A stretch of DNA of 64,000 nt from a virus. Below the pieces are notes generated by a model. That model made no database searches and was not told where the DNA came from. It saw only the letters and a list, made by a program, of their open reading frames with translations. The translations under genes were made by a program, and so were the position numbers. Every line of letters starts with the position of its first letter. The stretch's first letter is position 1. Positions 4,674 through 49,150 of the stretch are shown in pieces. The DNA is taken from IMG/VR virus record IMGVR_UViG_3300044640_001517, positions 26,335 to 90,334 of that record, one strand, 5' to 3'.

Positions 4674-5170
4674 AGATATGTCGTTCCTTGAGGCGTGTCT
4701 CTGTCGATTGTTGTTACGAGTATTCCGCAGTTCCTGAGATATGTAACTGATGTCTCAGGATTGCGATGCGCGTCCACTCCGCCTATTCTACATACAACTC
4801 GCTTGATTCCTGAGTTTGATATGAGCTTTGCACATTGCATACACGGAGGGCTGCTAATGTAGATAGTTCCACCCTCGCTCAACGAGCGATCTACATACAA
4901 AAGTGCGTTTGCCTCGGCGTGGATCGCAGGGCAGGCATCATACATATTGTCAAGTGGTGCAACGCCTTTTGCGCGATCGCACCAGTTGATGCACTCACCA
5001 GACTCTGGCCAACTTGCGGCAGGTCCATTGTAGCCTGTTGCGACGATGTGCTGATCGTGCGAAACAATTGCAGCACCCATCTGTGCACGGGTACAGCGTG
5101 ATCGTTTTGCTACGGCGTCAACGACCGCAAGCCAGGTATCGTCCCAAGACGGACGATTGTCACTTGCCAT
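4670..5170 (-). CDS. dCMP deaminase
   Basis: RPSWDD N-terminus, ATGYNG, HAEANA and PCMQC zinc motifs. Likely start is ATG 5170 rather than the longer ORF start. Confidence 0.9.
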   Translation of the reverse strand: MASDNRPSWDDTWLAVVDAVAKRSRCTRAQMGAAIVSHDQHIVATGYNGPAASWPESGECINWCDRAKGVAPLDNMYDACPAIHAEANALLYVDRSLSEGGTIYISSPPCMQCAKLISNSGIKRVVCRIGGVDAHRNPETSVTYLRNCGILVTTIDRDTPQGTTYL

Positions 5171-26332: not shown

Positions 26333-26465
26333 TGTCCCTCCTCCGGGATCAGTCACGATAGACCCACTTTAGGTCTATCTGGGGCTTCTGTCCATGGAGA
26401 GGGACTCTTGCACCGATGTGCAGAGGCACTCACCTAGGAATAACAATAACACTAACTAAAATGTC

Positions 26466-32654: not shown

Positions 32655-32669
32655 GTGCTCTTTCCTGTG

Positions 32670-35600
32670 CTATAGTTGAATTCTGTTAAGCTTCTCATCA
32701 GGCTGTATCGCCCTAATTTTATACATAATTCCGCGACTTGAGAACGTTATTTCTCGTTTATTTGGGTCCCACTTAAAGCCACTGTTCTCCTTGAGTTGGA
32801 ACGACAGACCACCATCACGGTCAGTCGTGATCTCCATGTAGCTTCTAATCGGAAGACCTTGGTCATCAAAGTCACGAATGATCTTTGCCGAGTATGCTGC
32901 ACGCAGCCAGCCGGCGTATTCACCGTCGACATTTTCAAGTACGGCCTGCGTGCCGGCGCGGTTGAGGTAGTTACCGTACTTTGCAAACTCGTCGTAGTCA
33001 GGCAGTGGAAGCATGTTTGTGTCTTTCTCTTCACCAGCCGAGGTGACGGGCATTGGTGGCACAGTGCGTCCAGTGTACAGCGTTAGGTTTATAAGCTGTT
33101 GCATGATATATGACTGCAGGTTCCTGTCCCTTGTGTTGGCGTACATGGGCAAAAGCATGCCTCTAGCCGCACTGTACATTTCAAATGACTTCATCTTTGC
33201 AACTTTTTTAATGATCTCGTCAACAAGTTTGTACCTGTCTAAGATATCAGCGTAGTCTTCTCCGGTTGGATTGCCTGCGTTTTCCTGCCCAAACGGAATA
33301 ACTATCTCCGCCCTAAGCATTGTGTCGTATCCACCTGCGTTAGTTACAGCATGGTTTCCAGAAAACGGCAACCAGTCGACCTTGCCTTCCTCTTCCTGCC
33401 TGTCAAACGGAGAGTTGTATTCAGCAACTTTATTTCTCAATACATTTACGTCACTGGCCAACATTGGCTCCACGTACGCGTCTCCAGATAAAACGGCGCC
33501 TGCACTGCCTGCGTCGTGCGTGTAGTAGTGCCCGTCTGGATACCTAACAATGATCTGCGGTAACTGTCTTGTGTTTTCTATTTCAAAAGGATCTAACCCC
33601 ATGTCAACTGTAAACATATATTTTGCAGCTACTGCCACGGATCCTGCAGGCGCGGGTTGATAGTGCAGATCTGATCCCGTATATGTAAGCATCGCCGCAA
33701 GGTCATTAAAGTCTACAGTTTCACTTCCACCCGCCTCTGTAAATGCTTCTGTGAGGTTTTCTTCTGCAAAACGCAGCAACTGTCCTTTAGCGCTGTCTTT
33801 ACTTCCTCTTCTATCTTCTAAGATTTTTGATCCAGCAGTCAAGATAATTTCCTCTATCGGAGTTCCGTCTATCTCAGTAATCCCACGTTCCTTTAGCATT
33901 TTAATTGCGCGGTCACGAACAAGTTGTGACACAACAATCTGCGCGTCCTTTGTAATTGGAACACCGTGCTTAACCATCGCTTCCTGGCCTTCGTACTTGA
34001 CTGCCCTTAAGATATCTGTTCCAGGGACACGCTTGCCGTACAGGTCGTCTATGTTTGCATATAGATCTGATCGCTCAAAGATGTCAGTTGCTGGCCACCA
34101 GATACTTCCTTCACTGTTTGCGTTAAATCCGCCCATGACTTCTAGCGTGCTATTTTCGTCATGCTTTGTCGGCCTAAGAAACACGTAGTCAGCCCCGCCT
34201 GTCCATAGGTCTTCAGTCGAGGACATTCCCTTATAGTTGAGACCTTCTTGTACTCGAGAAACTGTTGCAACTAGTCCGTTTGTTACTACGTCAACAATTG
34301 CGTTTGTAGTTACCTGTATAAGTTCTTCTGGGGTCGGTGGTCTGCTCTGTGTATCAACAAGATTTGCAACTGCTTTTTCAAGACTTAAGTTGTGCTTAAA
34401 GCCTTTTATGCCTGTATCTTCTTGCATAAGAAACGCCACATTGTCTGGAAGCATATACTCAATGCGTCCATGAGACCCGATACGCGGGAACACATCTGCT
34501 GCTTCTACTCCCCAGCGTTCTTTGATCTTTTCAAGTTTCTTATCACGACGATCTTGGTCTGTAATGTTGATGTTTGGGTCAGTCTGAGAGTCGAACAGCG
34601 ACAGCAGTCTGTTTTCAATAAGCGACTTTGTGTCTTGCTGTTGCGCGGCGCGCACATCACGTACACCGGCCGCGCGGAGCGCCTCTTCGATATCAGACTG
34701 CTCGGCGTCAATTGGAAGATCAATGATCACCTGGTTGTGGAATGCTGCAGGCGCTGATTCATATTGTGCGTCAAGTGGTTCAAGACTATTGTCGTCATTT
34801 GCACGCATGATATTTATTGACCACGGATTGCCTGTATCTTCGCTATCTGAGACAAACATTCTGCCGTTATTGAATACCGCTCCGCCCCAGTTATTTACAA
34901 CACTTTCACCTGAGAGAACAATGTCGCCGTTTTCAGCAACGCTTACACGTTCAATTTGCGGCGCCTCTGCTCTAAACAAACTTCCAGCTTGACCTAGATT
35001 AGATGAGATTTCTTGTGTAACTTCCGCTCCGCGCCAGGACGTAAGTTTGAATCGAAGGCGCAACTTGCGCTCGCCGTCTGGCGTAATGATTGTTGATGCA
35101 CGGATGTCAAGATCTTCAATATCTGTACTGTCGACAGCCGCTGATACTCCGCGTTCTTTGTACTGATCTGGGCGATCTACAACAGTAGAGACAGCCTCCA
35201 TTAGAGAAGGAATGCCAGTAAGTCCAGATGAAGATATAGGCTTTGGATCTTTAATGACAACAGGAGGTCTACCTGCAGGTGTGACTTCTGAATTAGATTT
35301 CCCGTGCAGCTTTATCTTGTCACTTGTCACGAGTCTTGCGCCTTCACGCAGAGATAGTCTATAGTCACTTTCTTCAGTTGCGTCCATGTATTGTATGCGG
35401 TCTTTCCACTTCTTAACCTGTGGATCAGTTGAGGCGTTTAGCATCTGATCAATAAACATGTCAAGATTCATCAATGAAGGCCGTGCAAAATCCCAGTCTT
35501 CTGCAAGTTGCTTCATTTTCTTTGAATTATCAAAGTCTCCGCCGAGATACATGTCTGACGCGTTTTCTTTTATGGCTTGATCGAGAAGCGCAAAATACGC

Positions 35601-38600
35601 TCCGGCATTTTTATTTATCTCTTCTTGACTACGGACATCGTCTTCTTGGCGTTCAAATATCATCTCAATACCGTGACGAACAGCCGCGGCAACGTCTTGT
35701 CTAGATGTAATCCCATCTGCCATGAGCAAAAACCTAGGCCATGTTGACTGATCACCGCTTCTAAATAATGTTGGATCCCAGCCCGTCCTGATTACGGGTG
35801 TCTTGATGTCGTTGACGGTTGACTCAATATTTTGCTTGAGGATCTTTGCAGACTTTGCGCTGCTTCCGCTGGTTGTGTCCATGTCAGTGTTTATCGCAGC
35901 GAGTAGATCTTGGTATTCTTGCTCGCCTGCTGCCTTAGGAATATCAGGTACCATCGCCAGTGGATTTGCAAGATTTGCGTTTAGAAAATCAGCAACAGCT
36001 TTGAGCTCAGGTGAGTCATACATGTTGTTGATCTGCTCTTCTGTAAATCCTTTATTGAACCAACTTGTCTGAGGACTAATTCCAAATATCGGATACCACT
36101 TGTTTGTAGGTACACTTGTCTTTCCACCCGAACCTGTGCTTGCGTAGAACGGAACACTGACGCCGTTGATGTTGACGAGCACGATCGGACGACCTGCGAC
36201 GTTTGCGATTGACATCATTGTCTCATTGACAGGCATCTTTACGAGAGTCGCTGACATTCCACGGATCTGATCATGAAGAGTTGCGTGCATGTCTGAGAGG
36301 GCACTGTCAACCATCTCTGACATCACCTCTGGATCAATTGCGTTTTGCTCTGGTGCAGGTGTTTCATCACCAGTCTCGACTGTTGTGTCGGGGGTCTCTG
36401 AAACTTCTGGATTCCATGGTGGAGGTGGTGGTATATCGTCAGGAGCCTCTGTTGCCCCCTCTGGGGCTTCAGCTTTTGGGAGCGCTGAGCCGCCGTCGCC
36501 TTCTGGAGGACTAGGTGGAGGTTCAACGCCTACACCGCCTTCTCCTTCTGCTGGTGGTTCACCCTTAGGAGCTTTTGATTTCTTAGCCTTTGGATCGATC
36601 TCGCCCGCCTGCACCTTGTTCCAGATCTCCATCTGCTGTTCAAGATTCTTAGGCTTCTTCTTTTCGCTTCCCTTTTCACGTGTGATCTCGACGTATGGAT
36701 CTTCATCAGGACCGATGACGGTAAGTTCACGTGTGTTGTACGCCAGACGCGCAACGTACGGACCCCAGGCACCCTTCTGCTCTGTTGGACGTGGGTCAAT
36801 CTCCATGCGGACCTTGACACCGCCCCAGGTCTTTTCATACTCCTCGACGATACCTGCGTAACCAAACTTGGTACGGACACGCATGCCAGGTGTGAGGAAC
36901 GTTGTGCCGTCCTTCGCGTAACCTGCTGGGCGACCCTTAGAGTCGACAGCGTCGATCGGTGGGAGAGCGGCTCCTGTTGGACGCCAGTATGCCGAACCGT
37001 CAATGTAACGTTTTACTGCCTTGACCATGTCCTTGAATGACTCCATGTCAACGTATCTCTCGCTGAAGATGTCATATGTTGGTAGTGAGTCAATGATCGC
37101 GTTCAGTCGTGCGAGTGCTTGATCGTCTGTCATTGTTCCGTTTGCAAGAGCCTCGCGGATCTGTCGGACCTCTTCAGCAGCCTTCTTGATCTTGTTGCGG
37201 TCAGTTGCCATGAGTACCGAGTCTTCGCCCGTTACTTCGTCACGTGATTTCTCAACATCATCAAATGCGTTCTGCAGGTCAGCTGCTTTTTCGGAGTCAT
37301 CCTTGTAGCGGAGCACCTGCGACATATCAACGTTATTGTTGGTTGTCTCGAGCTGCTCTGGAGCAACATCATCTGGTGCCTGCTGTTCGCCCGTAGGTAC
37401 TACACCTAGCGGTGCAGGTACATCGTCTGGACGCCACTCTGGATCAAGCTTAGGTTGCTCAGCGGGTGTCTCTTTAGGAGTAAGTTTACTAATGCGGATC
37501 GCATCTGCGGCATCTGCCGCCTGAAGCATCAGACTCTGGAGGTCCCCAGCGCCTACCTCTGCGTAAGGTTCAAGAAGCTCGGCAGCATCGCGGAATCGCT
37601 CTTCAGCGTCGACGTACTGTTCACCTTCATAGGCGTAGAGCGCGTCTTTAACGGCTTGACGGAACTTCTTGATATTCTTCTCATCTTTTGAACTGCGATC
37701 TGAGTAGTCTTCAAGAGTATCGTCAGCATCTTTAACCGCCTGCTTTACAGACTTGATGATGCGCTCGTTGTCATCTCCACCATCGGAAGGTGTAGGTGTT
37801 GGTGCTGGTGGCTCTTCAACTCCACCGCCGCCTTCACCTTCTGTTGAAGGTACAGGCACTTCGGGAGCATTTGGCTCTTCAACAGGTGCAGGCTCTGCTG
37901 GTTGCTTGACAAAGCTATCGATCCAGCTAAGAGCACCGCGTCCTAGTTGCTTCTTAGCACGTGTAACTGCAACGTATGCAATCCTGAACTCTACTGGATC
38001 TGGCATCTCAACTTCGCCAGTTGCCTTATTGACACGAGGGCCCCAGAAGTCAGTCCAGATCAGAACCTTGTCCCACTCTAGACCCTTCGCCTGGTGGACT
38101 GTTGTGATAAATACGTCGATCGGCTTGGCATCAGCCTCGGCCGGCGCGACACCACCGTTGAGTGAGACGCTCAGTTTCTTGAGTACGTTGCTGATAGTGT
38201 CTTGGTTTGTTGTCTCAAGACGCCACTGGCCCTTTGACTTGTCCCACTTGAAACCGTTCTTTGCGATCGTTGACTTGTTCTCAAACGTGTTACCAAAGAC
38301 GCCGATTCCGTTTTCGTCGATCGTGTAGTCAACGCCCTTGCCGAGTGATCCTTCAGAGCCAACGTCTGTATCGTCAATGTCGACTGACTTCAGTGCTGCG
38401 CCTGTGCTCTTGGCAAGATGCAGTTGATCAAGGAGACCACGGATTCCATCGATGCCTTCAGTCTCAACCAGCCCAACAAACAACTTAAGCTTATTGCTTG
38501 CGTTGCTGTTCTCGTCTTCGGCCTCTTTCTTGACCTCCGCCCATGTCCTAAACGGTGCAAGTTCTGGATGCATCGGCTTAGGCTTTGTGCCGGTGCCTCC

Positions 38601-41600
38601 GTTGAGCAAGTATTCCGCAGAGTCTGTGAGATTTACAAGATCATTCTTGTAGTTCTTTGTCACGCCGACAGTGCGTCCGCGCTGAAGCTGATCAAAGATC
38701 GCGGAGAGTCCGCCGCTATTTGTACGCACAAGAATTGCATCAGCTGTGTCATAAAGCGATTCCTCTGGAACGAGTTCGCCCGGATCTGCGTTTCCACCGA
38801 TAACACGGTACGGTGACTCGAGCATGCTCAGCCACTTGTTGCCTTCATTTGCGATATTTGCACCAAAGCGCCACGACTTTGTGAGTGGGAACTCGACAGC
38901 TCCGAGTACTTTCCCGAGTTGGTTTTCTCCACCACGAAATGCGTAGATCGCCTGGTTTTCATCACCTACATAGACCTTTTGGATTGTCTGATCTGCGATG
39001 ACCTTGCCTGACACAGGGTTGATGTCTTGCGCCTCGTCAAAGAAGATGAAGTCAACGGCTTGCTTAAGTCCCGAGCCAATCTCGCCAAGATCTGGATTTG
39101 ACAACGCCCACATCTTTGTGATGATGGTGTTGTCCATACGCAGCTTGCCGTTTGGATCCTTGTAGTCTTCCCACATCTTGTTTACGATGTCGAGCATCCA
39201 AGGCTTAACGTCTTGTTCTGGGATATCAAAGTGCTGTGGACCAATCTCTGGATCAGCGCTGATTAGATACTTGCGCATCGCCTCCATAAAGAACTTGTGC
39301 GCTTCATACAGACCGTATCCTTGGGCACCTGGACCTTCAAACTCTGTGATGCCGAGATACTTGTCAATATCCTTGTAGTATGAAAGCTCAGGGTTCTTGT
39401 CGAGCTTCTTTACGATATCTTTAGGGGCCCAGCGTGTTGCGATCGCGTCATTGGTGATGACCTCGATGTTTGTAAGACCGGCCTTCCTAAAGCGTTCTTC
39501 AGCTTCAAGCTGCGCTGACTTGTTGAACGCGATATACACTCCGCGCTCTTGAGCAGCCTCTTTCTTCTTACGCTTTCCTGCGAGAAGAAGTGTCGCTGTC
39601 TTACCGGTTCCTGCGAGTGCCTGAACAACGACGTTCTTGCCCTCCATGATCGCATCAAGAATTGCGCGCTGTTCCTCGGTTGGCTTGAATTGCTCGTCCT
39701 TATATGGATCGTTGGTATCAACGCCGTCTTGTGATGGCGTGTCAATCTCTTGCGCATCGACCATCGATGACTCATTGCTTGTACTTCCACCGGCGACGCC
39801 GTCAGGATCGATCTCACCGATCGGAAGCGGCTGTGCCTCGCGGATCATCTGTTCAACTGAAGGTACGGAGCAAGGTCCGTTTGCAGGACCAACGGCCGCT
39901 GTCAATCCAGCGCCACCGCAGTTCCAAGAAGCCGCGATCGCCTTGGCGGCGACGTACTCTGCAAGATCTGCCTCGTACTTTGCGTACGCATTCTCGTAGT
40001 CAGCGATTTCCTGCTGCTTAGCCTCAAATGCACCGTCAACATTAAGAAGTGTTGTCGGCGTTGTGTCGGGATTATTGATAGCACGCGTAAGCATTGCATC
40101 AGTAATTTCCCACGAGGCCTGAGCATCTGCATCTGCGCGGTGCCAGTCTGGCAACTTAACTTCAAGGAATTCAGCAACTGGTCCAAGACTGTTTGATGCA
40201 CGACGCTTGCCGTCTTTTTCACTTACCTGACTTGCACCAAACTGTGTCTTTGAGTTCCACTTAGGAAGTGTGCCTTCAGCGAGATCTTTTGAGTCAATTG
40301 TTCCAACAATGTTGATTGACAGACCATTTGCGCTGAGAACTCGTTGAAGAATCTCAAGGTCAAACGGCGTGTACTGTCCGCCAAGAATTACCTCGTCACC
40401 TGCATGTTCTTTGACAAAATCTAAGAATTGCTGATGCGCGTCCTTCATCGAAGGCTGAGTTGTGAGCCACTCGTCTGTTACAGGCGAGCCGTCCATCTGC
40501 TTGAGGTTCTTAGCAGACCAGTCAGAAAGCTCATGCTCTGGATTCATGTATGAACTAAATTGAGCACGTACCTCTCCGTCTGCAACAAACGTTCCGCCGA
40601 TCTGCACCGGCTGGTTACGTCCACCCTTTTCAGGTCCTGGTAAACCTGTTGATTCATAGTCAAAGAACATGATAGGTGTCTTGCGGATGATCGCCGCGGC
40701 CTCTTCCCAGGTCTTGGCGTCCTTGAGAAGCTCAGCCATCTTTCCGGTGAATGCACCTGGTGAAGGTTTGCGTGGCGCCTTAGGACGGTGCAGTGCTGGT
40801 TTATCTCCCTTAGGTGGAATTGTGCCACCGCGTGCAACTGGAATGATTGTTGTTTCATTCCACTCTTTACGTTGTGACTCGTGACCTGGGAAGTAACCCT
40901 GCACGCTTACCTTGTTCTTTGGCGTCATCTGATCGCGGAACACACGTTCAATTACGAATGAATCGCCTTCAGCAACGTCGCCAGGTTGCAGATCTTGCGC
41001 GGCGTAGCCGATGCTCTCTGTCAAAGGCACGCGCTCTGCAAATGGATCAACTGTTGTATCTTTAATTCCAAGCTGATCAAGTATTGACTGACGACGACGC
41101 TTGAGCATGTCCTTAAGAAGTTCATTTTCTTTAGGACTATTTACGATCGAATCAACGATCTCGTCAATGCGACTTGGCGTGATGTTGAGGAGCTTTTCTC
41201 CGCTCTTCTTGATGTCTGCCGCTGTCATACTGCCAAACACATCTGAGGCGGTTGGGTTCATTCCAGGATCGCGCATTGAGTCAAGTTCAGCAACCTCTGG
41301 GCCAAACCATTCTTTACGTGAACCACGGGCGCGCCATACAAGCACTCCACCTTGATCAACGCGAATTGGATTGCCGTCTCCGTCTGCAACAACATTGTCG
41401 TAGACCATGCCGATTACGTCGTAGTTAGACAACCACGCGTCAATCGCAAAGCCTTCATGCAACTTGCCGAGGAACTCTGGATCATTGATGTAGTCATCCA
41501 TTCCAGATGTGGCGTTTGGAATCATCGGACTGATGATCTGTAGTGCACCGTCGCGTGTTCCAAGACCTACATCTGTTGCAGGAATACCAAGTTCACGATA

Positions 41601-44600
41601 CAAGGCTGATCCAAGTGTCTCGACATCAGCGTGATCTTGCGAACGCGCTGTCTTGACGTAGTAGCGATTTCCTTCGCTGTCTTCGTAAACACCACCTTGG
41701 TTTGAGCCTGCCTGTCCGGCTACACGCTTCCAGTCTGATACATCGCCGTATTCACGAGGAGCTGTTCCTTGTGTCGGAGCCTCTGGAGCTTCGACCACTT
41801 CAGGAGCCTCTGCCTCTGTCGGTTGACCGTACGCCTTCTTGAGCGCGTCTTCTGTTGCGCGCTTAAGCGTGATGATGTACTCGTTTTGGCCAGGCTTAAG
41901 AACTGCCGGCTGTTCGCGTACACTGTCGACGATAAACTCACCGGTGCCGAGGTGCTCTTGTTCTTGGTCATACCACGAGAATCCGTTGAGACTGACAGAG
42001 TCAATCTCACCTGCGGCGACCTCAAAGACGATACGTACGTCGTTTGGATTTGTAGGCGAGAATCCCACCGCACCGATCTCGCCTGTTGTTAGGTCTGTCT
42101 CGGTGAATGGACGTGGGTCAAATGAAACAACAAAGCCAGGCGTTGTGTATTTCTTGAACAGCTCAGAGTTTGCGTTTACGCCGATTGAACGATACAGCGG
42201 AATCTCTGATACTTCCTTTGCGGCGGCGACAAGTCTAAATAGACCGGCAGCAGGCGTGTCGCTCTCAAGGTCGTCGACACCGTCGGCGATCGCCTTCTTT
42301 GAGTCAACAAGATCTTTAAAGCCACCAAAGTCTTCATAGAGCTGGTAGTACATCTCCATCGCCTTGCCGCCGTCACCACCGGTGAGTCGTTCAAGTGCGT
42401 CAAGAATTATGGCACGTGAACCAGGGTGCTGCCAGTCTTCGAGGTCGCTGTCGCCACCATCGATTGAGAGCATAAGACCCCAGTAAGACTGGAACGCCTC
42501 GCGCTCTTCAGCGCTCTCACTAAATGCCCACGGAAGATATGTATCAAGATCGCGTGCAAGTTGCGCATCTGCGTCGCCTTCTTGCGAAAGATCAAGACCG
42601 TTTATTCCACGAGAGATAAGTTCTTGTGCAAGATCTTGGATGTTTGGATTTGTCTCTTTATGCTGATTGATCAGACGGAACGCTGTTATCGCGTTCTCCG
42701 GTTTTCCAAGTTCTCCGTTGATCGCCTGTGCGGCACGTGTCTGAGCGAGTCGATCGCTGAGTGGAATCGCGGCGCTCGGTGAACCTGCAGGAGGTGTGTT
42801 GATCGTGTCAACATAGTTCAACTGATTCTTCTTAGACTTGTCAGGTGACGCGCTGTCAAAGATCCCGGCGAGCAAGAACCCAGCATCCATACCTGTCTGT
42901 TCAAGTGCCTCAAACAAAGCCTCGGCCTTGACAGGTTCATCTCCACTTTCAAACGGAAGGTTTCCATATCCGTTTGCTGGGCCTGAGTCAGATGGAAGAA
43001 CAGCGTCGCGGAGTGCGCGAACAAGTTCATCCTCGGAGAACTTACCGCTCAATACCCTAGGATCGTCTGTGTAGTCAGCGCTGTCTTGGTTTGTGCGACC
43101 TTCAGGCTTATAGAACTCAAAGATATTTGGCTTGTACGCGCCTTCAGGCGTTGTGTACATCGAGTCAAAGGCCTCATCATTAAATGTGCCCATGTCTTCT
43201 GCGTCTGGTTCGCCGCCAAACAGGTTCTCGTCTACCGGCTCGTCAAGATCTCCAGCAATGTTGTCTGAGTCTGCGAGGTCACCGTTGTACCACTTACCGA
43301 AGTCTTCTTCACGTCCCTCTGGAACTGAGAAGTCAACGATCGGCCAGCCGCCGCCAGCGCCTTCTGACACAACAACATCTGCTTCGCCTTCAGGAAACTT
43401 TGCCTTGAAGTCCTTGAGCACATCATCAAGTGTTCCTTCTTCAAAAGCGACGTCAACCTCAAAGCTTGTTCCTGGGTTACCGTTCTTAAGCTCGGTGTTG
43501 TCTCCCATTGGAATGTTGTACTTTTCAGCAAACGCAACCGCGTCACCTGTTGGGAAGTCTTCAATGTTGTCTTCGCCAAACCAGTCGTTAAAGCGTTCTT
43601 CTTCGCCTGCTGGAATATCAAACTCAAACACTGGGTATCCGTTTTGTGCATCGCCTGTAAAGCGAGCTTTTCCACCTGGGATGTCTTCTTCGAACTCTGA
43701 AATGATATCTTCGTTGCTACGACCTTCAGGAAGAACTGCAAGACGACGTGTAGTTGTTGCTGCTGGTTTTTCTTCAAAGTTATTGTTGATTCTGTCGAAG
43801 GAAAGCTTGTCCTTTGACTGCTGTAGACGATCCAAGTTTGACTTTGCGCGCTTGTGAAGTTTGCCGTCTGGACTATCAGGTCCGTTAAGCACGTTCTTCA
43901 TTGTCTCGATCTTGCGGTTGAGATCAGCTATCTGCCTGTCAAACTCAGATACTTTTTCTTCATATGCAGGAGTTGCTGCGGTTGGTGTTGGCCATGCAGC
44001 GTCGACGAGACGATCAAGTTCGTCCTGCGGCATGTTGACGATGTCGTCAACCTTGACGTTTGTGTCAGCCGCAGGCTTGTTCATCTTGTCAATCGTGAAC
44101 GTGCGGTCTTCGCCGTCGGTCTTGCTGAAACCTTTAAGCTGCTTCTTGCCGGCCTTGTTCTCGACGATCTCTTCAGGCGTAACCACGCGAAGCTTATCGT
44201 TGAAGTCAAACGCAACGTCTTTCTTTTCTTCAATTGACTTCTCAATGATTGCTGGAAGATTTGCAGTTGGTGTATCACGCAGGTCGTTTGCCGCGTCTAC
44301 GAGACGTTGGATCTCGGGTGAGATCTCTGGTGGTTCAGCAAACAGTGTTGGTTGACCAGGCTTTGTCTTCTCCATTTTTGCTGGTCCTGCTGGAGCAGCA
44401 GATGGACGTGAAGGCGCGCCAGCGCGCTCATCAGAGTCAGGAATTGGCCGACTATCTTCTGCGGACTGTAGACCTTTTTCTTCCCGCGCTGCAAGAAGAT
44501 CTTGCATCAACTCTGGATACTCATCAAAGTCTGGAGTTGGACCGACGTAGGTCCACTCATAACTTGTTGTTGGAATACCTACAGGTTTCTGTTCCCAGTT

Positions 44601-47600
44601 ACCTGGATCATCAAGCCGTTCTTGGAATTTTTCTCGCTCTCTTTGCAGTTTTTCTTGACGCGTTGCTTTTGGTTCACGCTTGCCGTTCTTTATCGCAATG
44701 GCCTCTGCGTTTGGCATGTCAGCCTTGACTGCCTCAGCCGCCTCGGCGAGTGTGTCGGTAGTTGCAATCTGCTTGTTGTTACCTTCGCCTAACCAGATGC
44801 CTTTACGCCATACCTCAAACTTGCTCTTTCCATCTTTTTGTACAGCCTCGGTGATGCTGTGATCTTCGCCGTACTCGTCTGCCGGTGGAATGTGCGTCCA
44901 TGCGTTTGCCTCTCCGCCATACATGCCGGCGATACGGATATCCCAGCCTTCTGCGGTTGTGCCTTGCGGAACATCTGCCATCGGCTTGTCCAGGCTCGGG
45001 TCAATAATCCGTTTTCCGTCAGGTCCAAGCTTGTAAATCTCGGGCAGAGGCTCGTACTTGGGTGGTTCAAGTGGAATCAGTTCCCCGTCAGGTCCAAGCT
45101 TGAAATTCTCGTCGGGCCCGCTCCAGATCTGGTCAGGTCGCAATTCTTTGTCGTCGGGGATGTTAGGCAAGTTCTCCCACGGCAGATCATCCCACGCTTC
45201 TGCTGGGATACCATCTGGGGGCTCAGGCCACTTGGTGCGACTGGAAGGCTTAGGAGCAACGATCTTGTCCCACGCAAAGTTCTTGCTGGTGCCGTCTGAG
45301 TCCTTGGCCTTTAGGTTCGTGCGACCTGTCTGTCCGTTCTGCCAGACGCCTTCTGGAGTAACAACGCGGTCCTTGTCGCTATACATGAAGTGGAGCTTTT
45401 GGTCGTTATCAATAGCATCTTGAACAAACTTCTTGATGTCAGCGATCTTGTTGACTTCTTTTGGATTGAGGTCAATGACATTTTCTGCGGCGCTTGGTTG
45501 TACCTCATCTCGCTTAACGTCCCATCCGGCCGGAGCTTCAGGAGTGCTTACACCTGTAACCTTGTCAGCGGTAAATGTGCGACCTTCACCGTCTGTCTCA
45601 CTGAAACCGACGATGTTTGTCTTACCTGTCTTAGGACTTGTATAGATACGTTCTGGTCTAAACGTACGATCTTTTCCACCGTAGCCAAACTTGACAGGAT
45701 ACTGACCGTCGATCGCCTTCTGCATCTGATCAACAACCTCTTCAGGCGTGCTGTCAGGTTTGATAAACTGTGGTGCCTTGCCGCGGTCGGCCTCTGGCAT
45801 CGTGATGATCTTTGCCTTTTCTTTCTTCGCCTCTTTCTTAGGTGAAGGAGCATCCATCTTTGAGATGGTAAACGTGCGCTCTTCGCCGATCGCATGATCA
45901 AATCCAACGAAGTTTGTTTCACCGGTCTTCTTGTTGGTATATGTATTGCCGCTTGGTTGAACCTCGCGATCTTTTCCGTTATACTTAAATCGAAGAACGT
46001 CGCCGTTACGGTACGCTTGCATGACTGCGCCGATCTTTGACATTGACGTGTCACCTGCAAAGTCAACCAGATTGCCCGATGGAGTGGCGTAGCTAGGTAT
46101 GTCGACCATCGCTTTTCCGCCGCCGCGCTCTTCTCCAGTCAGTCTAAATCCATCTTTTTCGGCGTCATAGACCTCGTCTTCGGTGAACCAATATGCGCCG
46201 ACATTTTTTGACGCCATCTTGTATTCTTTTACACCGGTGTCCATCAGCTGTTTGTACGTAAGACCCTTAACGGCATTCTTCATCTTTTCAACATCAAGAA
46301 GAACACGATCTGTCGGGACACCCATTGACTCGAGCTGTGCCGAGTCCATGATGTAGTCCGTTGCGTTATAGTCACCGTCTGTCGCCTTGTCGAGCGCGTT
46401 GCGAAGATTTGACTCTGAACCTGTAAGCTTTACAGATCCGTCGTCTTGAAGTTTGATGTCAACACCAGGTGCAAACTCCTGCTTCCACGCATCAAGACCT
46501 TCTTGAGTTACAGGCTCTCCGTCTGTCTTCCAGTCAACACTGACAGACTTAACGTCTGCCTTTTCAAGCTGCGATGCTGGCTTTTCAAGTTGCGCTTTTT
46601 CTTCAGCTGCGCGCTTGTTTTCTTCATCAGCCATTCGCTGAACAGCAGGAGGCACTGGACCAGGGCGGTCGCCAGGTCCTGTTGTCTCACCCGCCGGCTT
46701 AAACTTATCTTCGCCGATGTCTTCTTGAACAACGTCAACACCCCAGCCACCTTGGCTGAGCAACTTCTGACCTTGCTTGCTGTTGAGAAACTTTTCATAC
46801 TGATCTTGGTCGGTAAGTGCTGTAAGCTCAACAGAGTCCCAACCGTCCGCCATGCCGATCTTTTGGTTTCCAACCGCACGGAATACTGACGCCTTGCGTG
46901 CGCCGGTGATCTCTTGCTGGCCGTCTTTGTTTATTGGGATCTCAACACGGTAACCGTCAGCGCTCATAAACGCGACGTGGTTAGGCTGTGATGCCTGTGT
47001 AGGTGTCCAGCCTGTCGGTGCGTCAAGCTTTCGCATTGACGAGAAGTTGACAGCGTACTTTTGATCTTCGCGAGAGACAGCTACTTCTGGGGTGTCCTTT
47101 AGATACGACTTCTTAATGATCGCCTTTGCGGACTGACCTTTCTTAGCTGGTACAGCGTAGACTCCGTTTGGGATATTTTTATCGTCTTTGATCTCGACTT
47201 CAATGTCATCAACACCTGACATGCCGACAACTTTTCCACTTACGTAGCTGTGTTTGCCAGACTTGAAGATGTTGAATTTCCAGCCACCACCCATGAACGC
47301 AAAACGGCCAAAGCGGTCACGGCGTTGCATACGTGCACGGGCAGAACGCGCCGCACGTGAGTTACCGCCAAGACCAAAGCCAAGTACGGCGATGATCGGT
47401 TCAAGATCAACAGCGGCTGTGATCGGGACAACACCAGGTCCCAATGCCGCGATACGTGCAAACGCGTGCTTGCGCTCAAATGAACCGTGTTCGTACGAGT
47501 GAGCAGACGCGACAAGTGCGCGGATGTCGTCGTCGATGATGAGGTCATCGGCCGCGATCCAACGTGCACGTGCGTGGCGCAACGCCGACGCGGTCATCGC

Positions 47601-47915
47601 GTGCGCGCGTGTCGAGAGCGGGTGACCTACCGAAAGAAGGTCAGAGTTTTCAAGAGAAGAGGTTGACACCTTGTTCTTTGAAGAAAGCGCGATAAAGCCA
47701 GACACGGCGCGTAACGCAGAGAACGCACGTGTTGAGTTGCTGCCGTATACTTCCTTGCGGATCTCACGGTTTGCAACCTCGATCGCCGAAGCGAGCGTTA
47801 CCTGACGTTCTGGTTGAATTGACTTGTTTGCAGTATCAAGCATCGTGATGATGCTTGAGCGAAGACGAAGTAGTTCAGCCGTACTGAGCTGTGTGCGCTT
47901 TTTCTTGTTTGACAT
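32670..47915 (-). CDS. Giant polyvalent protein (5081 aa): 4x WYL, ADP-ribosyltransferase, HipA/PI3K-like kinase, DEDDh exonuclease, UvrD-like helicase, putative second ART
   Basis: WYL-like F.Y..K.R.V.P...G......RTF..DK repeats; LYR...EQEH; GSNQGG..YYVK..E..DAWLSNYD..DN..VDQGG; DYESTG..FD..HRADAD; AGTGKT, DEAQD, VGDENQAIYAFRG, HQAKGLEW, YVAVTRA. Confidence 0.85.
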   Translation of the reverse strand: MSNKKKRTQLSTAELLRLRSSIITMLDTANKSIQPERQVTLASAIEVANREIRKEVYGSNSTRAFSALRAVSGFIALSSKNKVSTSSLENSDLLSVGHPLSTRAHAMTASALRHARARWIAADDLIIDDDIRALVASAHSYEHGSFERKHAFARIAALGPGVVPITAAVDLEPIIAVLGFGLGGNSRAARSARARMQRRDRFGRFAFMGGGWKFNIFKSGKHSYVSGKVVGMSGVDDIEVEIKDDKNIPNGVYAVPAKKGQSAKAIIKKSYLKDTPEVAVSREDQKYAVNFSSMRKLDAPTGWTPTQASQPNHVAFMSADGYRVEIPINKDGQQEITGARKASVFRAVGNQKIGMADGWDSVELTALTDQDQYEKFLNSKQGQKLLSQGGWGVDVVQEDIGEDKFKPAGETTGPGDRPGPVPPAVQRMADEENKRAAEEKAQLEKPASQLEKADVKSVSVDWKTDGEPVTQEGLDAWKQEFAPGVDIKLQDDGSVKLTGSESNLRNALDKATDGDYNATDYIMDSAQLESMGVPTDRVLLDVEKMKNAVKGLTYKQLMDTGVKEYKMASKNVGAYWFTEDEVYDAEKDGFRLTGEERGGGKAMVDIPSYATPSGNLVDFAGDTSMSKIGAVMQAYRNGDVLRFKYNGKDREVQPSGNTYTNKKTGETNFVGFDHAIGEERTFTISKMDAPSPKKEAKKEKAKIITMPEADRGKAPQFIKPDSTPEEVVDQMQKAIDGQYPVKFGYGGKDRTFRPERIYTSPKTGKTNIVGFSETDGEGRTFTADKVTGVSTPEAPAGWDVKRDEVQPSAAENVIDLNPKEVNKIADIKKFVQDAIDNDQKLHFMYSDKDRVVTPEGVWQNGQTGRTNLKAKDSDGTSKNFAWDKIVAPKPSSRTKWPEPPDGIPAEAWDDLPWENLPNIPDDKELRPDQIWSGPDENFKLGPDGELIPLEPPKYEPLPEIYKLGPDGKRIIDPSLDKPMADVPQGTTAEGWDIRIAGMYGGEANAWTHIPPADEYGEDHSITEAVQKDGKSKFEVWRKGIWLGEGNNKQIATTDTLAEAAEAVKADMPNAEAIAIKNGKREPKATRQEKLQREREKFQERLDDPGNWEQKPVGIPTTSYEWTYVGPTPDFDEYPELMQDLLAAREEKGLQSAEDSRPIPDSDERAGAPSRPSAAPAGPAKMEKTKPGQPTLFAEPPEISPEIQRLVDAANDLRDTPTANLPAIIEKSIEEKKDVAFDFNDKLRVVTPEEIVENKAGKKQLKGFSKTDGEDRTFTIDKMNKPAADTNVKVDDIVNMPQDELDRLVDAAWPTPTAATPAYEEKVSEFDRQIADLNRKIETMKNVLNGPDSPDGKLHKRAKSNLDRLQQSKDKLSFDRINNNFEEKPAATTTRRLAVLPEGRSNEDIISEFEEDIPGGKARFTGDAQNGYPVFEFDIPAGEEERFNDWFGEDNIEDFPTGDAVAFAEKYNIPMGDNTELKNGNPGTSFEVDVAFEEGTLDDVLKDFKAKFPEGEADVVVSEGAGGGWPIVDFSVPEGREEDFGKWYNGDLADSDNIAGDLDEPVDENLFGGEPDAEDMGTFNDEAFDSMYTTPEGAYKPNIFEFYKPEGRTNQDSADYTDDPRVLSGKFSEDELVRALRDAVLPSDSGPANGYGNLPFESGDEPVKAEALFEALEQTGMDAGFLLAGIFDSASPDKSKKNQLNYVDTINTPPAGSPSAAIPLSDRLAQTRAAQAINGELGKPENAITAFRLINQHKETNPNIQDLAQELISRGINGLDLSQEGDADAQLARDLDTYLPWAFSESAEEREAFQSYWGLMLSIDGGDSDLEDWQHPGSRAIILDALERLTGGDGGKAMEMYYQLYEDFGGFKDLVDSKKAIADGVDDLESDTPAAGLFRLVAAAKEVSEIPLYRSIGVNANSELFKKYTTPGFVVSFDPRPFTETDLTTGEIGAVGFSPTNPNDVRIVFEVAAGEIDSVSLNGFSWYDQEQEHLGTGEFIVDSVREQPAVLKPGQNEYIITLKRATEDALKKAYGQPTEAEAPEVVEAPEAPTQGTAPREYGDVSDWKRVAGQAGSNQGGVYEDSEGNRYYVKTARSQDHADVETLGSALYRELGIPATDVGLGTRDGALQIISPMIPNATSGMDDYINDPEFLGKLHEGFAIDAWLSNYDVIGMVYDNVVADGDGNPIRVDQGGVLVWRARGSRKEWFGPEVAELDSMRDPGMNPTASDVFGSMTAADIKKSGEKLLNITPSRIDEIVDSIVNSPKENELLKDMLKRRRQSILDQLGIKDTTVDPFAERVPLTESIGYAAQDLQPGDVAEGDSFVIERVFRDQMTPKNKVSVQGYFPGHESQRKEWNETTIIPVARGGTIPPKGDKPALHRPKAPRKPSPGAFTGKMAELLKDAKTWEEAAAIIRKTPIMFFDYESTGLPGPEKGGRNQPVQIGGTFVADGEVRAQFSSYMNPEHELSDWSAKNLKQMDGSPVTDEWLTTQPSMKDAHQQFLDFVKEHAGDEVILGGQYTPFDLEILQRVLSANGLSINIVGTIDSKDLAEGTLPKWNSKTQFGASQVSEKDGKRRASNSLGPVAEFLEVKLPDWHRADADAQASWEITDAMLTRAINNPDTTPTTLLNVDGAFEAKQQEIADYENAYAKYEADLAEYVAAKAIAASWNCGGAGLTAAVGPANGPCSVPSVEQMIREAQPLPIGEIDPDGVAGGSTSNESSMVDAQEIDTPSQDGVDTNDPYKDEQFKPTEEQRAILDAIMEGKNVVVQALAGTGKTATLLLAGKRKKKEAAQERGVYIAFNKSAQLEAEERFRKAGLTNIEVITNDAIATRWAPKDIVKKLDKNPELSYYKDIDKYLGITEFEGPGAQGYGLYEAHKFFMEAMRKYLISADPEIGPQHFDIPEQDVKPWMLDIVNKMWEDYKDPNGKLRMDNTIITKMWALSNPDLGEIGSGLKQAVDFIFFDEAQDINPVSGKVIADQTIQKVYVGDENQAIYAFRGGENQLGKVLGAVEFPLTKSWRFGANIANEGNKWLSMLESPYRVIGGNADPGELVPEESLYDTADAILVRTNSGGLSAIFDQLQRGRTVGVTKNYKNDLVNLTDSAEYLLNGGTGTKPKPMHPELAPFRTWAEVKKEAEDENSNASNKLKLFVGLVETEGIDGIRGLLDQLHLAKSTGAALKSVDIDDTDVGSEGSLGKGVDYTIDENGIGVFGNTFENKSTIAKNGFKWDKSKGQWRLETTNQDTISNVLKKLSVSLNGGVAPAEADAKPIDVFITTVHQAKGLEWDKVLIWTDFWGPRVNKATGEVEMPDPVEFRIAYVAVTRAKKQLGRGALSWIDSFVKQPAEPAPVEEPNAPEVPVPSTEGEGGGGVEEPPAPTPTPSDGGDDNERIIKSVKQAVKDADDTLEDYSDRSSKDEKNIKKFRQAVKDALYAYEGEQYVDAEERFRDAAELLEPYAEVGAGDLQSLMLQAADAADAIRISKLTPKETPAEQPKLDPEWRPDDVPAPLGVVPTGEQQAPDDVAPEQLETTNNNVDMSQVLRYKDDSEKAADLQNAFDDVEKSRDEVTGEDSVLMATDRNKIKKAAEEVRQIREALANGTMTDDQALARLNAIIDSLPTYDIFSERYVDMESFKDMVKAVKRYIDGSAYWRPTGAALPPIDAVDSKGRPAGYAKDGTTFLTPGMRVRTKFGYAGIVEEYEKTWGGVKVRMEIDPRPTEQKGAWGPYVARLAYNTRELTVIGPDEDPYVEITREKGSEKKKPKNLEQQMEIWNKVQAGEIDPKAKKSKAPKGEPPAEGEGGVGVEPPPSPPEGDGGSALPKAEAPEGATEAPDDIPPPPPWNPEVSETPDTTVETGDETPAPEQNAIDPEVMSEMVDSALSDMHATLHDQIRGMSATLVKMPVNETMMSIANVAGRPIVLVNINGVSVPFYASTGSGGKTSVPTNKWYPIFGISPQTSWFNKGFTEEQINNMYDSPELKAVADFLNANLANPLAMVPDIPKAAGEQEYQDLLAAINTDMDTTSGSSAKSAKILKQNIESTVNDIKTPVIRTGWDPTLFRSGDQSTWPRFLLMADGITSRQDVAAAVRHGIEMIFERQEDDVRSQEEINKNAGAYFALLDQAIKENASDMYLGGDFDNSKKMKQLAEDWDFARPSLMNLDMFIDQMLNASTDPQVKKWKDRIQYMDATEESDYRLSLREGARLVTSDKIKLHGKSNSEVTPAGRPPVVIKDPKPISSSGLTGIPSLMEAVSTVVDRPDQYKERGVSAAVDSTDIEDLDIRASTIITPDGERKLRLRFKLTSWRGAEVTQEISSNLGQAGSLFRAEAPQIERVSVAENGDIVLSGESVVNNWGGAVFNNGRMFVSDSEDTGNPWSINIMRANDDNSLEPLDAQYESAPAAFHNQVIIDLPIDAEQSDIEEALRAAGVRDVRAAQQQDTKSLIENRLLSLFDSQTDPNINITDQDRRDKKLEKIKERWGVEAADVFPRIGSHGRIEYMLPDNVAFLMQEDTGIKGFKHNLSLEKAVANLVDTQSRPPTPEELIQVTTNAIVDVVTNGLVATVSRVQEGLNYKGMSSTEDLWTGGADYVFLRPTKHDENSTLEVMGGFNANSEGSIWWPATDIFERSDLYANIDDLYGKRVPGTDILRAVKYEGQEAMVKHGVPITKDAQIVVSQLVRDRAIKMLKERGITEIDGTPIEEIILTAGSKILEDRRGSKDSAKGQLLRFAEENLTEAFTEAGGSETVDFNDLAAMLTYTGSDLHYQPAPAGSVAVAAKYMFTVDMGLDPFEIENTRQLPQIIVRYPDGHYYTHDAGSAGAVLSGDAYVEPMLASDVNVLRNKVAEYNSPFDRQEEEGKVDWLPFSGNHAVTNAGGYDTMLRAEIVIPFGQENAGNPTGEDYADILDRYKLVDEIIKKVAKMKSFEMYSAARGMLLPMYANTRDRNLQSYIMQQLINLTLYTGRTVPPMPVTSAGEEKDTNMLPLPDYDEFAKYGNYLNRAGTQAVLENVDGEYAGWLRAAYSAKIIRDFDDQGLPIRSYMEITTDRDGGLSFQLKENSGFKWDPNKREITFSSRGIMYKIRAIQPDEKLNRIQL

Positions 47916-47917
47916 AT

Positions 47918-49150
47918 CTAGCTTTCGATGTTAGGTAGCAAGTCGGAATCTTGGCTGTCATATGTCATTATGGCAAGTTCGCGCGCACGATCAAATCCGT
48001 GCTCGTTGTTGTCAACTCCACGCTTCCACGCTGCGCGTAGTGCGGGGATGATCTCGTAACCGAGACCGCTGTATTCTGCAAATGCTGTTATTGCGTGTTC
48101 AGGAGATTCGTATTCGTGTGAATCTCCGAGCGTGATGATCAACTCTGTGGCCGCCTGTGCAGCCGCTGTGAGAACTGACTCTGATGCGTTTGACGCTGTT
48201 GACTTTGGGTGACCTTCAGGTAACAAGTCATTGTCTTGCTTGTAGTTTGGATTCGCCGGTGTACCTGACTTGAGTAGACGAAGATATGCGTTTACGCGCG
48301 CCATCGCCCACTGATCACGGGTCTTACCTGGGCGATGTGAGCTCGAGTACGCACCAGCGCCGCGGCGATACACCGCCTTTAACTGTGCAAGTGTTGCTTT
48401 GCGGCCGGCCTTTGCATCTACGTTGTGCTCTTTGACCTTGTTCATCAACGCTGTCTCAGTCTTGGCTGAAAACGTAATGTTGCGTCCACCTGATGCAGAT
48501 CCTTTTGGATTCTTTTTTGATCCCGTGATTCTGTCTTTTTTAGGCGCAGGCTTTGAGGCCGCGGCTAAGAATACAGAATCATCTTCGGTGGCGTAGTCTT
48601 CAGCGCCGTCTTCATAGACGTATACCTCAACCTGCTCTTGCTCTGGCGTTGCGACCAACTTTCCGCCGGTCTGCATTCCGGTGATTGCGCGCAGTTGCCA
48701 TCCCCATTTTTTATGTGCAGCGTCTCGCTCTGCGAGAAGATCTGCAATGCCCTGCTCGTTTGCATCTGATGCGAGCTTAAATGACTCAAGAATACATTCA
48801 TTTAGAATGTTGTTTGCCTGGAGAAGATCTGCGCTCATCAGCACTGGATCGTCAATGCGGTCGTTGTCCATGCTTTCGATCTTTGAGAACGCAGACATGG
48901 CTGACAACGTTGCTGGTGAGTCAAACCCAAGCTTAAGAATACTTTCAGCGATCGGATCAATTGCACCTTGCGCATCTGCGTAGATGTCACCAAACAGATC
49001 ATGAAACTCGGAGAAGTCCGGCCCTTTAACATTCCAATGAAACCCGATCGCCTTTGTGTAAAAAGCAAATGTCGTACCGAGACAGTGACCGAGACTCATT
49101 GCGAGGTTTGCCTTCATCTCGTGTGAATGCTGTGGGTTGTTCATGATCAT
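47918..49150 (-). CDS. Dps/ferritin-like domain fused to additional phage head-associated domains
   Basis: FHWNVKGPDFSEFHDLF...IDPIAE Dps signature; second domain LKAVYRRGAGAYSSSHRPG..RDQWAMARVNAYL. Confidence 0.8.
   Translation of the reverse strand: MIMNNPQHSHEMKANLAMSLGHCLGTTFAFYTKAIGFHWNVKGPDFSEFHDLFGDIYADAQGAIDPIAESILKLGFDSPATLSAMSAFSKIESMDNDRIDDPVLMSADLLQANNILNECILESFKLASDANEQGIADLLAERDAAHKKWGWQLRAITGMQTGGKLVATPEQEQVEVYVYEDGAEDYATEDDSVFLAAASKPAPKKDRITGSKKNPKGSASGGRNITFSAKTETALMNKVKEHNVDAKAGRKATLAQLKAVYRRGAGAYSSSHRPGKTRDQWAMARVNAYLRLLKSGTPANPNYKQDNDLLPEGHPKSTASNASESVLTAAAQAATELIITLGDSHEYESPEHAITAFAEYSGLGYEIIPALRAAWKRGVDNNEHGFDRARELAIMTYDSQDSDLLPNIES

Follow-up and report, generated by a model that had tools for sequence, protein, structure and literature searches.

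A giant multi-enzyme protein encoded in the head module of a lake actinophage and its possible delivery with phage DNA

The 64,000-nucleotide stretch of viral DNA analysed in this study (hereafter the window), which corresponds to bases 26335-90334 of the 90,334-base IMG/VR virus record IMGVR_UViG_3300044640_001517, carries among its head genes a single open reading frame (ORF) for a protein of 5081 amino acids. We propose, with a probability of roughly 0.6, that this giant protein is a polyvalent effector of an uncultured freshwater actinophage that is packaged in the capsid and delivered together with the DNA. Alignments indicate that the catalytic signature residues are intact in all five of its enzyme domains (two ADP-ribosyltransferases (ARTs), a kinase, an exonuclease and a helicase), and that its first ~310 residues form a conserved two-part front end, which stays constant while the remainder of the protein is shuffled. 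As judged by profile comparisons, both parts of this front end recur in other proteins of the head module, including proteins that are necessarily inside the procapsid, namely the protease and, in Roseobacter phage CRP-822, the capsid protein. A preliminary description of this DNA had proposed a multi-enzyme ‘polyvalent’ protein within the head module, and this assignment is upheld by the domains and flanking head genes reported below. The second ART fold and the family-defining front end are new additions to that description.

The giant gene and its enzyme domains

The giant ORF is 15,246 bases long, begins with ATG and runs in a frame free of stops. For 5081 random codons, the chance of encountering no stop (3 stops among 64 codons) is ~1e-106. 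The encoded protein has a mass of 558 kDa and an isoelectric point (pI) of 4.7. The source virus record has a CheckV completeness of 68%, and the window stretch is contained in 24 sequencing runs, all labelled lake water metagenome (word share 0.61-1.00); RNA data are not represented among these runs. Contigs from four runs were aligned on positions 32000-48500, with X4 being a possible source of the record and X17, X18 and X19 not being flagged as source. The X17-X19 contigs have depth in 30/30 bins of this interval and differ from the window at seven single bases, with no indels and no joints, whereas the entire giant-gene stretch is covered by one 18.8-kb contig of X4. Within the limits of short-read contigs, this coverage shows that the ORF does not stem from a faulty assembly. 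The earlier claim of a single 15.2-kb gene for 5081 residues, whose continuity was checked here with the contigs of other runs, therefore stands.

Since the sequence derives from a short-read metagenome assembly, the long ORF might be suspected to be chimeric, or to join several genes through sequencing errors. Such an origin is extremely improbable, not only in view of the contigs from three other runs but also because the 100%-identity cluster of the giant protein holds eight member sequences and collinear relatives exist at lower identity. One of these relatives has 5348 residues and is 82% identical, and seven more, with lengths of 5.7-6.1 thousand residues, are 53-63% identical over the aligned parts. 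The existence of collinear relatives of 5-6 thousand residues also means that the combination of domains, which was not recognised in the preliminary description, is not unique to this phage. Loose ends of the X17-X19 contigs occur at position 41779 (three runs, identical sequence), which corresponds to the linker between the first ART and the kinase at about residue 2045, and others at position 40705 (two runs) correspond to the linker before the exonuclease at about residue 2403. These loose ends suggest that the sequences of co-occurring relatives part ways precisely where one domain ends and another begins.

Four WYL repeats, a DEDDh 3'-5' exonuclease and a UvrD/PcrA-type superfamily 1 (SF1) helicase with an insert are recognizable by sequence profiles. 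The WYL model of Pfam reaches 26.2 bits (cut-off 21.8) when residues 461-1140 are scanned separately, PADLOC matches WYL at residues 1200-1290 (E 2e-13) and 621-694 (E 1.3e-12), and a clear pattern is common to all four repeats. The exonuclease is matched by RNase_T (PF00929) with 31.1 bits (cut-off 24), by phrog_192 (E 4.6e-14) and by the DEDDh model of PADLOC (E 2.4e-10), and its motifs D-x-E, D and H-x-x-x-D are found at residues 2417, 2517 and 2591. For the helicase, there are matches to the UvrD N-domain (PF00580, E 2.2e-13), the UvrD C-domain (PF13361, E 2.2e-10) and phrog_1967 (E 2e-80), and Walker A, DEAQD, motif III and motif VI are all present.

The first ART and the kinase that follows it are more apparent from structure prediction. 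Residues 1571-2400 were aligned with eleven relatives (alignment A1, 12 rows) to produce a structure model with a mean predicted local distance difference test (pLDDT) score of 67.9. When this model was compared with the PDB by Foldseek, the Helicobacter pylori kinase CtkA was the top match (E 3e-5) and the ART Vis was also matched (E 1.7e-4), which points to an R-S-E type ART with a helical N-lobe and a CtkA/HipA/PI3K-like kinase. The ART residues R1909 and E1985/E1987 are kept in at least 90% of A1 rows, and the position of the Ser-x-Ser motif is doubtful. In the kinase, the glycine-rich loop and K2088 are likewise kept in at least 90% of rows, and D2159, N2164, D2166 and D2187 are invariant.

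The relationship of both domains to characterized proteins is distant. The Pfam family of VIP2/C3-like ARTs, PF03496, has no match in the giant protein at E<=5, and a precomputed PF03496 match is found in 6 of the 11 rows of a homologue list (10 of the rows are relatives). No kinase or HipA model of Pfam matches the giant protein, and weak PI3_PI4_kinase matches occur in 3 of 18 complete relatives and in gp82 of Microbacterium phage Pumpernickel. A phmmer search of PDB sequences with residues 1571-2400 gave chance matches only (E>=0.28), the best fold matches of the ART are scattered over bacterial ARTs generally, and the kinase shares 13-15% identity with CtkA of H. pylori and with HipA/HipT kinases. 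A word-based homologue search with the same residues in the length range of 456-1453 amino acids returned one protein of such stand-alone size, and therefore ART-kinase blocks rarely stand alone. The preliminary description had called four WYL domains, an ART (~41860-42210), a HipA/PI3K-like kinase (~41080-41740), a DEDDh exonuclease (~40080-40680) and an SF1 helicase (~37930-39690). Each of these domains was recovered by the evidence above, and all of the coordinates agree to within a few residues.

The second ART fold is predicted for the C-terminal region, where residues 4206-4740 are conserved across all relatives, including the shorter ones. Residues 4190-5081 were modelled with ten relatives (alignment A2, 11 rows; mean pLDDT 68.6). 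Foldseek found nothing for this model at E<=1e-3 in the PDB or in BFVD. When the model was aligned to all 48,161 representative chains, the best match to residues 4491-4701 was DarT, the toxin of the DarTG toxin-antitoxin system (PMC11543638). Five rows of fold matches all fall on model residues 302-512, which are residues 4491-4701 of the protein, and the remaining rows are generic helical matches elsewhere in the model. Residues H4508, R4554, Y4577 (within TGGADYVF) and E4645 are invariant across 11 giant proteins. The first three are also invariant in a second set of eight sequences from IMG/VR loci (A6), and E4645 is kept in all seven A6 rows that reach this position, with the L058 fragment stopping short of it. 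H, Y and E each lie in, or at the start of, a strand of the model. Their order is that of the H-Y-E class of ARTs, as in DarT (PMC11543638), and their placement on strands in the model fits what is expected for this class.

A link between this domain and DarT at the level of sequence was not found by comparing the A6 profile with the PDB, by Pfam searches of eight members, by PADLOC, or by searching two records with PF14487 (E<=1). A homologue search with A6 returned 19 short ‘hypothetical’ fragments of the giant-protein family and no bridge to DarT. A macrodomain of the DarG type was found in 0 of 2 records (the window's record and the metagenome-assembled phage record DSL-LC01) by a search that was positive in 8 of 14 control genomes and did not extend to NADAR, and an ESM Atlas search with the C-terminal 1211 residues gave nothing usable (best score 0.80, unnamed clusters). 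The model and its conserved residues make it probable that residues 4491-4701 adopt a DarT-like ART fold with an intact triad. We do not call the domain a member of the DarT family because it has neither a sequence link nor a macrodomain partner. The likeness to DarT consists of the fold and of the H...R...Y...E pattern on matching strands. The known DarT is a defence toxin that is paired with DarG, whereas the domain described here belongs to the C-terminal portion of a giant phage protein and has no Pfam DarT or PADLOC match. It was matched in 57 of 157 family proteins and in most relatives forms the extreme C-terminus, as in a protein of 2279 residues where it occupies residues 2077-2277.

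The front end and the variable domains behind it

The front end is composed of a DUF5824-like part A, with the motif DLLxxGHPxST, and a part B, in which the motif NSxxARxxRAxxQRRDRxGRFAxMGGG precedes a small beta part. Part A resembles the protein encoded immediately upstream, which combines a Dps/ferritin domain with a C-terminal DUF5824 region in 410 residues. In a profile comparison (hhalign, profile A3), part A and this DUF5824 region align over 133 columns with a probability of 93.5% (E 2.2e-7), and they have the motif DLLPxGHPxST in common. By this comparison, part A is a paralogue of the DUF5824 part of the neighbouring protein. In 77 of 84 sources, the ORF upstream is matched by a local hidden Markov model (HMM) of part A. 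Phages of Salinibacter, Roseobacter, Pelagibacter and Methylophilales likewise contain DUF5824-like sequence, and we found no literature on DUF5824. Immediately after the portal gene, Roseobacter phage CRP-822 (L086, 4340-7264) encodes a 974-residue fusion of DUF5824 (E 0.0012, under the Pfam cut-off), Peptidase_S78 (E 4.8e-7) and Phage_capsid (E 2.8e-31). This triple fusion is annotated ‘major capsid protein’, and its capsid part is of the HK97 type.

Part B also recurs in other proteins of head modules. Its local HMM is positive in 85 sources, with one copy in 66, two copies in 17 and three copies in 2. Extra copies head separate cargo ORFs in L010 (two), L011, L042, L047, L054, L058, L079 and DSL-LC01, as well as in Pumpernickel gp82. 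The cargo protein of DSL-LC01 consists of part B and DUF3626 in 466 residues, whereas Pumpernickel gp82 has 2235 residues with the B module at its N-terminus and its weak PI3/4-kinase match at the end. In 12 sources, the protease-bearing head protein contains a weaker copy near residues 350-430, with HMM matches of E 3.6e-5 in DSL-LC01, E 2.4e-5 in Pumpernickel gp84 and E 0.02 in the 1818-residue protease protein of the window. A tblastn search of 50,697 GenBank phage records with part B returned only DSL-LC01.

A natural dissection of the front end is offered by loci L042 and L047, in which the giant gene is replaced by three genes (~9950-19600 in L047). One encodes part A alone (182 residues, equivalent to residues 1-170). 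Another encodes a 1591-residue protein that opens with part B (equivalent to residues 171-324) and contains DUF3626, the family of the ART SopF. The third (>1392 residues) again has part B at its start, followed by WYL repeats. Searches with the front-end profile (A3) against PDB sequences gave no match at E<=1, and the first 400 residues gave nothing usable in the ESM Atlas. The MuF domain (PF04233) was found in 0 of 3 records at E<=0.01 (the window's record, the complete DSL-LC01 genome and Pumpernickel), and the same search was positive in 5 of 14 control genomes.

The short motif [LIVM][TV]A[AS][AG], a candidate site of the head protease, is enriched in three proteins of the head module. 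It occurs three times in the giant protein (0.28 expected from shuffled sequences), six times in the 1818-residue protein (0.19 expected) and twice in the capsid protein (0.16 expected). The giant-protein sites are at residues 107 and 134, which lie in part A and are conserved in the family, and at residue 1895 in the helical lobe of the first ART. Because these sites are inside domains rather than at domain borders, we do not treat the motif as a sign of cleavage.

The front end defines a large protein family. When residues 1-400 were used as a HMMER query against 1.84 billion representative sequences, 363 proteins matched at E<=1e-3, of which 262 also passed E<=1e-10 and 135 passed E<=1e-30. 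The 363 proteins are clusters at 50% identity with lengths mostly of 2-7 thousand residues, and among the 150 matches listed, the match begins within the first 50 residues. For 157 members, the median length is 2848 residues and the maximum is 7004. When these members were compared with the window's protein by BLASTP, front-end residues 1-300 were covered by about 150 of them, and coverage of the other parts was lower: 103 for residues 1601-1700, which represent a small alpha/beta domain that we call Ydom, ~61 for the kinase, ~57 for the exonuclease, ~55 for the C-terminal module, ~45 for the R-S-E ART, ~30 for the helicase and 14-27 for the WYL repeats. Ydom is often repeated two to four times, with 96 copies in 50 ORFs. 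Ydom, C-terminal module 1 and residues 460-600, 900-1140, 1390-1560, 2620-2740 and 3385-4190 gave no fold match, the two structure models of this study having covered residues 1571-2400 and 4190-5081.

Conservation of gene order was evaluated in 81 rows, which comprise 80 loci kept from 92 relatives found by an IMG/VR scan with the front-end alignment, plus L005. The giant gene is preceded by a portal homologue in 79 of the 81, and the two exceptions have <1.6 kb of upstream DNA. The Dps/DUF5824 homologue is upstream in all 81. The giant ORF runs off the fetched DNA in 59 cases, and 18 distinct complete genes encode proteins of 1729-3458 residues. Downstream of 15 of these complete genes is a homologue of the protease protein, and for the other three there are 470-2077 bases of downstream DNA.

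The 18 complete proteins also reveal how architectures vary. Pfam identifies PI3_PI4_kinase in three, Sigma70_r4 in two, and GNAT, NUDIX and DUF465 in one each. Local HMMs assign to seven of them an architecture of front end, one to four Ydom copies, ART, kinase, C-terminal module 1 and DarT-like domain, and one more has this arrangement with no ART. Most of the remaining members consist of the front end, three Ydom copies and unassigned sequence. Compared with these relatives, the window's protein is an expanded form that has in addition the exonuclease and the helicase, the four WYL repeats and, at its C-terminus, an extension of 360 residues. The alignments further indicate that the middle of the protein is made of swappable cassettes. 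Relatives gain or lose WYL, exonuclease, helicase, NUDIX, GNAT and further modules, and they keep the front end and often the ART-kinase pair and the DarT-like domain.

Gene neighbourhood and host

The giant gene resides in a tightly spaced block of head genes on one strand, whose order is terminase large subunit (TerL), portal, Dps/DUF5824 protein, giant protein, 243-residue protein, 1818-residue protease protein and capsid protein (Table 1). The giant ATG is 2 bases past the stop of the upstream gene, and the next gene begins 15 bases after the giant stop. The location between portal and protease genes given in the preliminary description is correct in outline, but neither gene flanks the giant gene directly because the Dps/DUF5824 gene and the 243-residue gene intervene.

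Table 1. Parts of the giant protein and neighbouring head genes, with positions in the window
Feature	Residues	Positions	Strand	Evidence or remark
Terminase large subunit (TerL)		53532-54956	-	
Portal protein		49165-50904	-	phrog_776 E 1e-105
Dps/ferritin + DUF5824 protein	410 in total	47918-49150	-	Pfam ferritin domain E 2.9e-11
Giant gene	5081 in total	32670-47915	-	
Front end part A, DUF5824-like	1-170	47406-47915	-	
Front end part B	172-310	46986-47402	-	
WYL repeat 1	607-695	45831-46097	-	Pfam, PADLOC, repeat pattern
WYL repeat 2	720-794	45534-45758	-	Pfam, repeat pattern
WYL repeat 3	809-894	45234-45491	-	repeat pattern
WYL repeat 4	1196-1285	44061-44330	-	PADLOC, repeat pattern
Ydom, small alpha/beta domain	1575-1690	42846-43193	-	second most widespread family part
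R-S-E type ART with helical N-lobe (predicted)	1743-2030	41826-42689	-	R1909, E1985-x-E1987
CtkA/HipA/PI3K-like kinase (predicted)	2055-2290	41046-41753	-	
DEDDh 3'-5' exonuclease	2417-2604	40104-40667	-	Pfam, PHROG, PADLOC, motifs
UvrD/PcrA-type SF1 helicase with insert	2747-3324	37944-39677	-	Pfam, PHROG, PADLOC, motifs
Conserved C-terminal module 1	4220-4490	34446-35258	-	
DarT-like (H-Y-E) ART fold (predicted)	4491-4701	33813-34445	-	
C-terminal extension	4720-5081	32673-33758	-	closest relatives only
243-residue protein	243 in total	31923-32654	-	
Head protein with S78 prohead protease	1818 in total	26466-31922	-	phrog_859, phrog_18402 and others
Major capsid protein		24428-26356	-	

Several neighbours vary among relatives. 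The Dps/DUF5824 protein may be a second capsid cargo, and in L047 its ferritin and DUF5824 parts are encoded by separate genes. The counterpart of the 1818-residue protease protein is divided among three genes in DSL-LC01 (603, 851 and 183 residues) and is a single 1534-residue gene product in Pumpernickel. The 243-residue protein shares 50% identity with a protein of DSL-LC01 that bears the annotation ‘high potential iron-sulfur protein’, and its homologue precedes instead of follows the giant gene in some relatives.

Gene content and similarity searches identify the virus as a lake-water actinophage. The virus record contains two WhiB genes (E 1.8e-20 and 2.2e-19), and only Corynebacterium was positive for WhiB among 14 control genomes. 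Among the 50,697 phage records, the best matches to the portal protein come from phages labelled Actinomycetia, Microbacterium, Arthrobacter, Gordonia and Mycobacterium. A scan of 185,579 species genomes in GTDB gave one front-end match, on a 2.5-kb contig (L085) in a metagenome-assembled genome of Ca. Fonsibacter lacus. This is probably a misbinned phage contig, and the scan therefore provides no prophage and no host clue.

Proposed packaging and delivery, and competing explanations

The sequence of events that we favour can be outlined as follows. The giant protein would be made late, together with the head proteins, and its front end would dock it inside the procapsid, in the place held by MuF fusions elsewhere. 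The S78 prohead protease may cleave it there. It would leave the capsid with the DNA and act at once in the new host, where the two ARTs and the kinase might modify host proteins, and possibly DNA, to re-programme or poison the cell. The exonuclease-helicase pair would act on DNA or other nucleic acids, and the WYL domains might bind nucleic acids or nucleotide signals. The ‘DNA-end processing’ and ‘anti-defence’ of the preliminary description are conjecture based on what the domains are called. Capsid loading fits the data because portal synteny is conserved, the front end is head-associated, the B module is common to cargo proteins and, less clearly, the protease protein, and MuF was not found in three records.

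A number of points weigh against this proposal. An acidic protein of 558 kDa would need to unfold or be cut to traverse a siphovirus tail. The docking role of the front end is argued from fusions and synteny, because neither a solved structure nor MuF matches it, and the similarity between part B and the protease protein of the window is slight (the HMM value given above; hhalign probability 36.5%, E 3.7e-4). The synteny counts are not independent, in that L005 is the L033 contig and many of the 81 rows are near-duplicates. The complete front end is present in only one of the 50,697 GenBank phage records, the metagenome-assembled DSL-LC01 (tblastn). Both structure models are also middling, with mean pLDDT values near 68 from alignments of 12 and 11 rows.

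Some of these same data could be explained if the protein is located in the capsid but serves mainly in structure or assembly, as a substitute for MuF or a scaffold or as an ejection protein, with its helicase and exonuclease acting on phage DNA during packaging or ejection. The giant gene is in the slot of MuF, for which all three records were negative, the front end and gene order are strongly conserved, and part B is common to the protease-bearing head protein. However, only the front end is constant in the family, with the helicase and exonuclease reaching ~30 and ~57 of 157 members, and a structural core would not be expected to swap ART, kinase, GNAT, NUDIX and sigma-region modules. We therefore regard a mainly structural role as unlikely. 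About equally unlikely is an unpackaged cytoplasmic multi-enzyme, made late for host shut-off, counter-defence or phage exclusion, that is merely co-transcribed with head genes. The size and acidic pI of the protein make encapsidation demanding, which would suit such an enzyme. Yet its position between portal and protease genes is fixed family-wide, its front-end domains are fused to procapsid proteins elsewhere (CRP-822), and effectors that act only late have little reason to retain a head-linked N-terminal module.

A very different target is suggested by a study of freshwater phages, some of them predicted actinophages, in which 24 were found to carry VIP2-family ARTs and a role against grazers was proposed (Kavagutti 2019, PMC6802176). 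By analogy, the ART of the giant protein would be a ‘Trojan horse’ toxin against protists that graze on infected cells. We consider this very improbable for a protein in which the ART is one domain within 5081 residues, beside DNA enzymes and a bacterial-type kinase. Domain scans found no translocation or receptor-binding part, and the ART has its best fold matches among bacterial ARTs in general.

The giant protein fits the concept of the polyvalent proteins and is a distinct form of them. These were described as chains of 2-15 disparate domains that are encoded near virion genes, are often linked to MuF and are predicted to be injected (Iyer 2017, PMC5512222), and ARTs are the commonest macromolecule-modifying enzymes among them (Iyer 2022, PMC9503650). 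The giant protein resembles them in uniting many unrelated activities, with at least nine domain types in one chain, in being encoded by a phage among virion genes (TerL, portal, protease and major capsid genes surround it), and in containing an ART, a kinase and a UvrD-like helicase, and like them it would be packaged and injected. It differs in that no MuF or zincin peptidase was detected, the anchor instead being a DUF5824-like part, whose relative is joined to a protease and a capsid domain in CRP-822, and the B module. The polyvalent proteins of Iyer 2017 have a truncated Ser/Thr/Tyr kinase, whereas the kinase described here is CtkA/HipA-like. The WYL repeats, the DEDDh exonuclease and the DarT-like domain also set the giant protein apart. 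In the main text of PMC5512222, to which this comparison applies, WYL is mentioned only in a CRISPR context, ‘exonuclease’ appears only in the reference list and DarT is absent.

Related arrangements are known from cultured actinophages. MuF is fused to a VIP2 ART in Microbacterium phage clusters EH and EJ (Jacobs-Sera 2020, PMC7302621). As in those MuF-toxin fusions, the giant protein has a head-associated N-terminus, variable toxin-like C-terminal cargo and a gene close to the portal gene, but it has no MuF homology, exceeds them 5- to 20-fold in size and combines many cargo domains where they have one. Cluster EK phages and phage Burro have 13-kb genes for proteins of >4400 residues, with few recognisable domains, that were called the largest actinophage proteins (PMC7302621). 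Burro virions contain a band of ~250 kDa that was taken as the product of the giant gene or a processed part of it. Compared by description only, these are likewise giant genes in the structural regions of actinophages, and the protein described here (5081 residues) and its relatives (up to 7004) exceed their products in size.

The DSL-LC01 homologue of the giant protein has 3289 residues and is labelled ‘hypothetical protein’; the passages of the DSL-LC01 paper that we examined do not mention it. Delivery of enzymes from phage heads has precedents, as cited in PMC5512222 and PMC7302621. T4 Alt, which is an ART, and the N4 virion RNA polymerase are both carried in the head and leave it together with the DNA, and the N4 enzyme demonstrates that a protein of ~3500 residues can be packaged. 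Each of these proteins has a single function, unlike the giant protein, and no sequence relation to it was found.

So far, the notion that polyvalent proteins are injected comes almost entirely from computation. The giant-protein family offers a clean test case for it because the front end is defined, the cargo varies naturally, the sequence recurs in lakes (24 runs) and distant relatives are cultured. The sharp limits of the front end make it suitable for fusion to reporters, and among the cultured relatives is Microbacterium phage Pumpernickel, which has the B module in its post-portal proteins. Should the front end turn out to be a capsid-loading tag, this would account for the loading of very large payloads by siphoviruses, and the tag could be used to package proteins of choice in phage heads.

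A more far-reaching proposal, which we advance only tentatively and consider doubtful at present, is that parts A and B together are a loading tag for interchangeable procapsid cargo in abundant lake actinophages. At one extreme this cargo would be a Dps mini-ferritin, at the other an enzyme chain of 7000 residues, and a constant C-terminal DarT-like enzyme would be injected to ADP-ribosylate host DNA. If this is true, a fold known from bacterial anti-phage defence would have become a phage weapon, and a DNA-targeting ART delivered by a phage would represent a new kind of host take-over.

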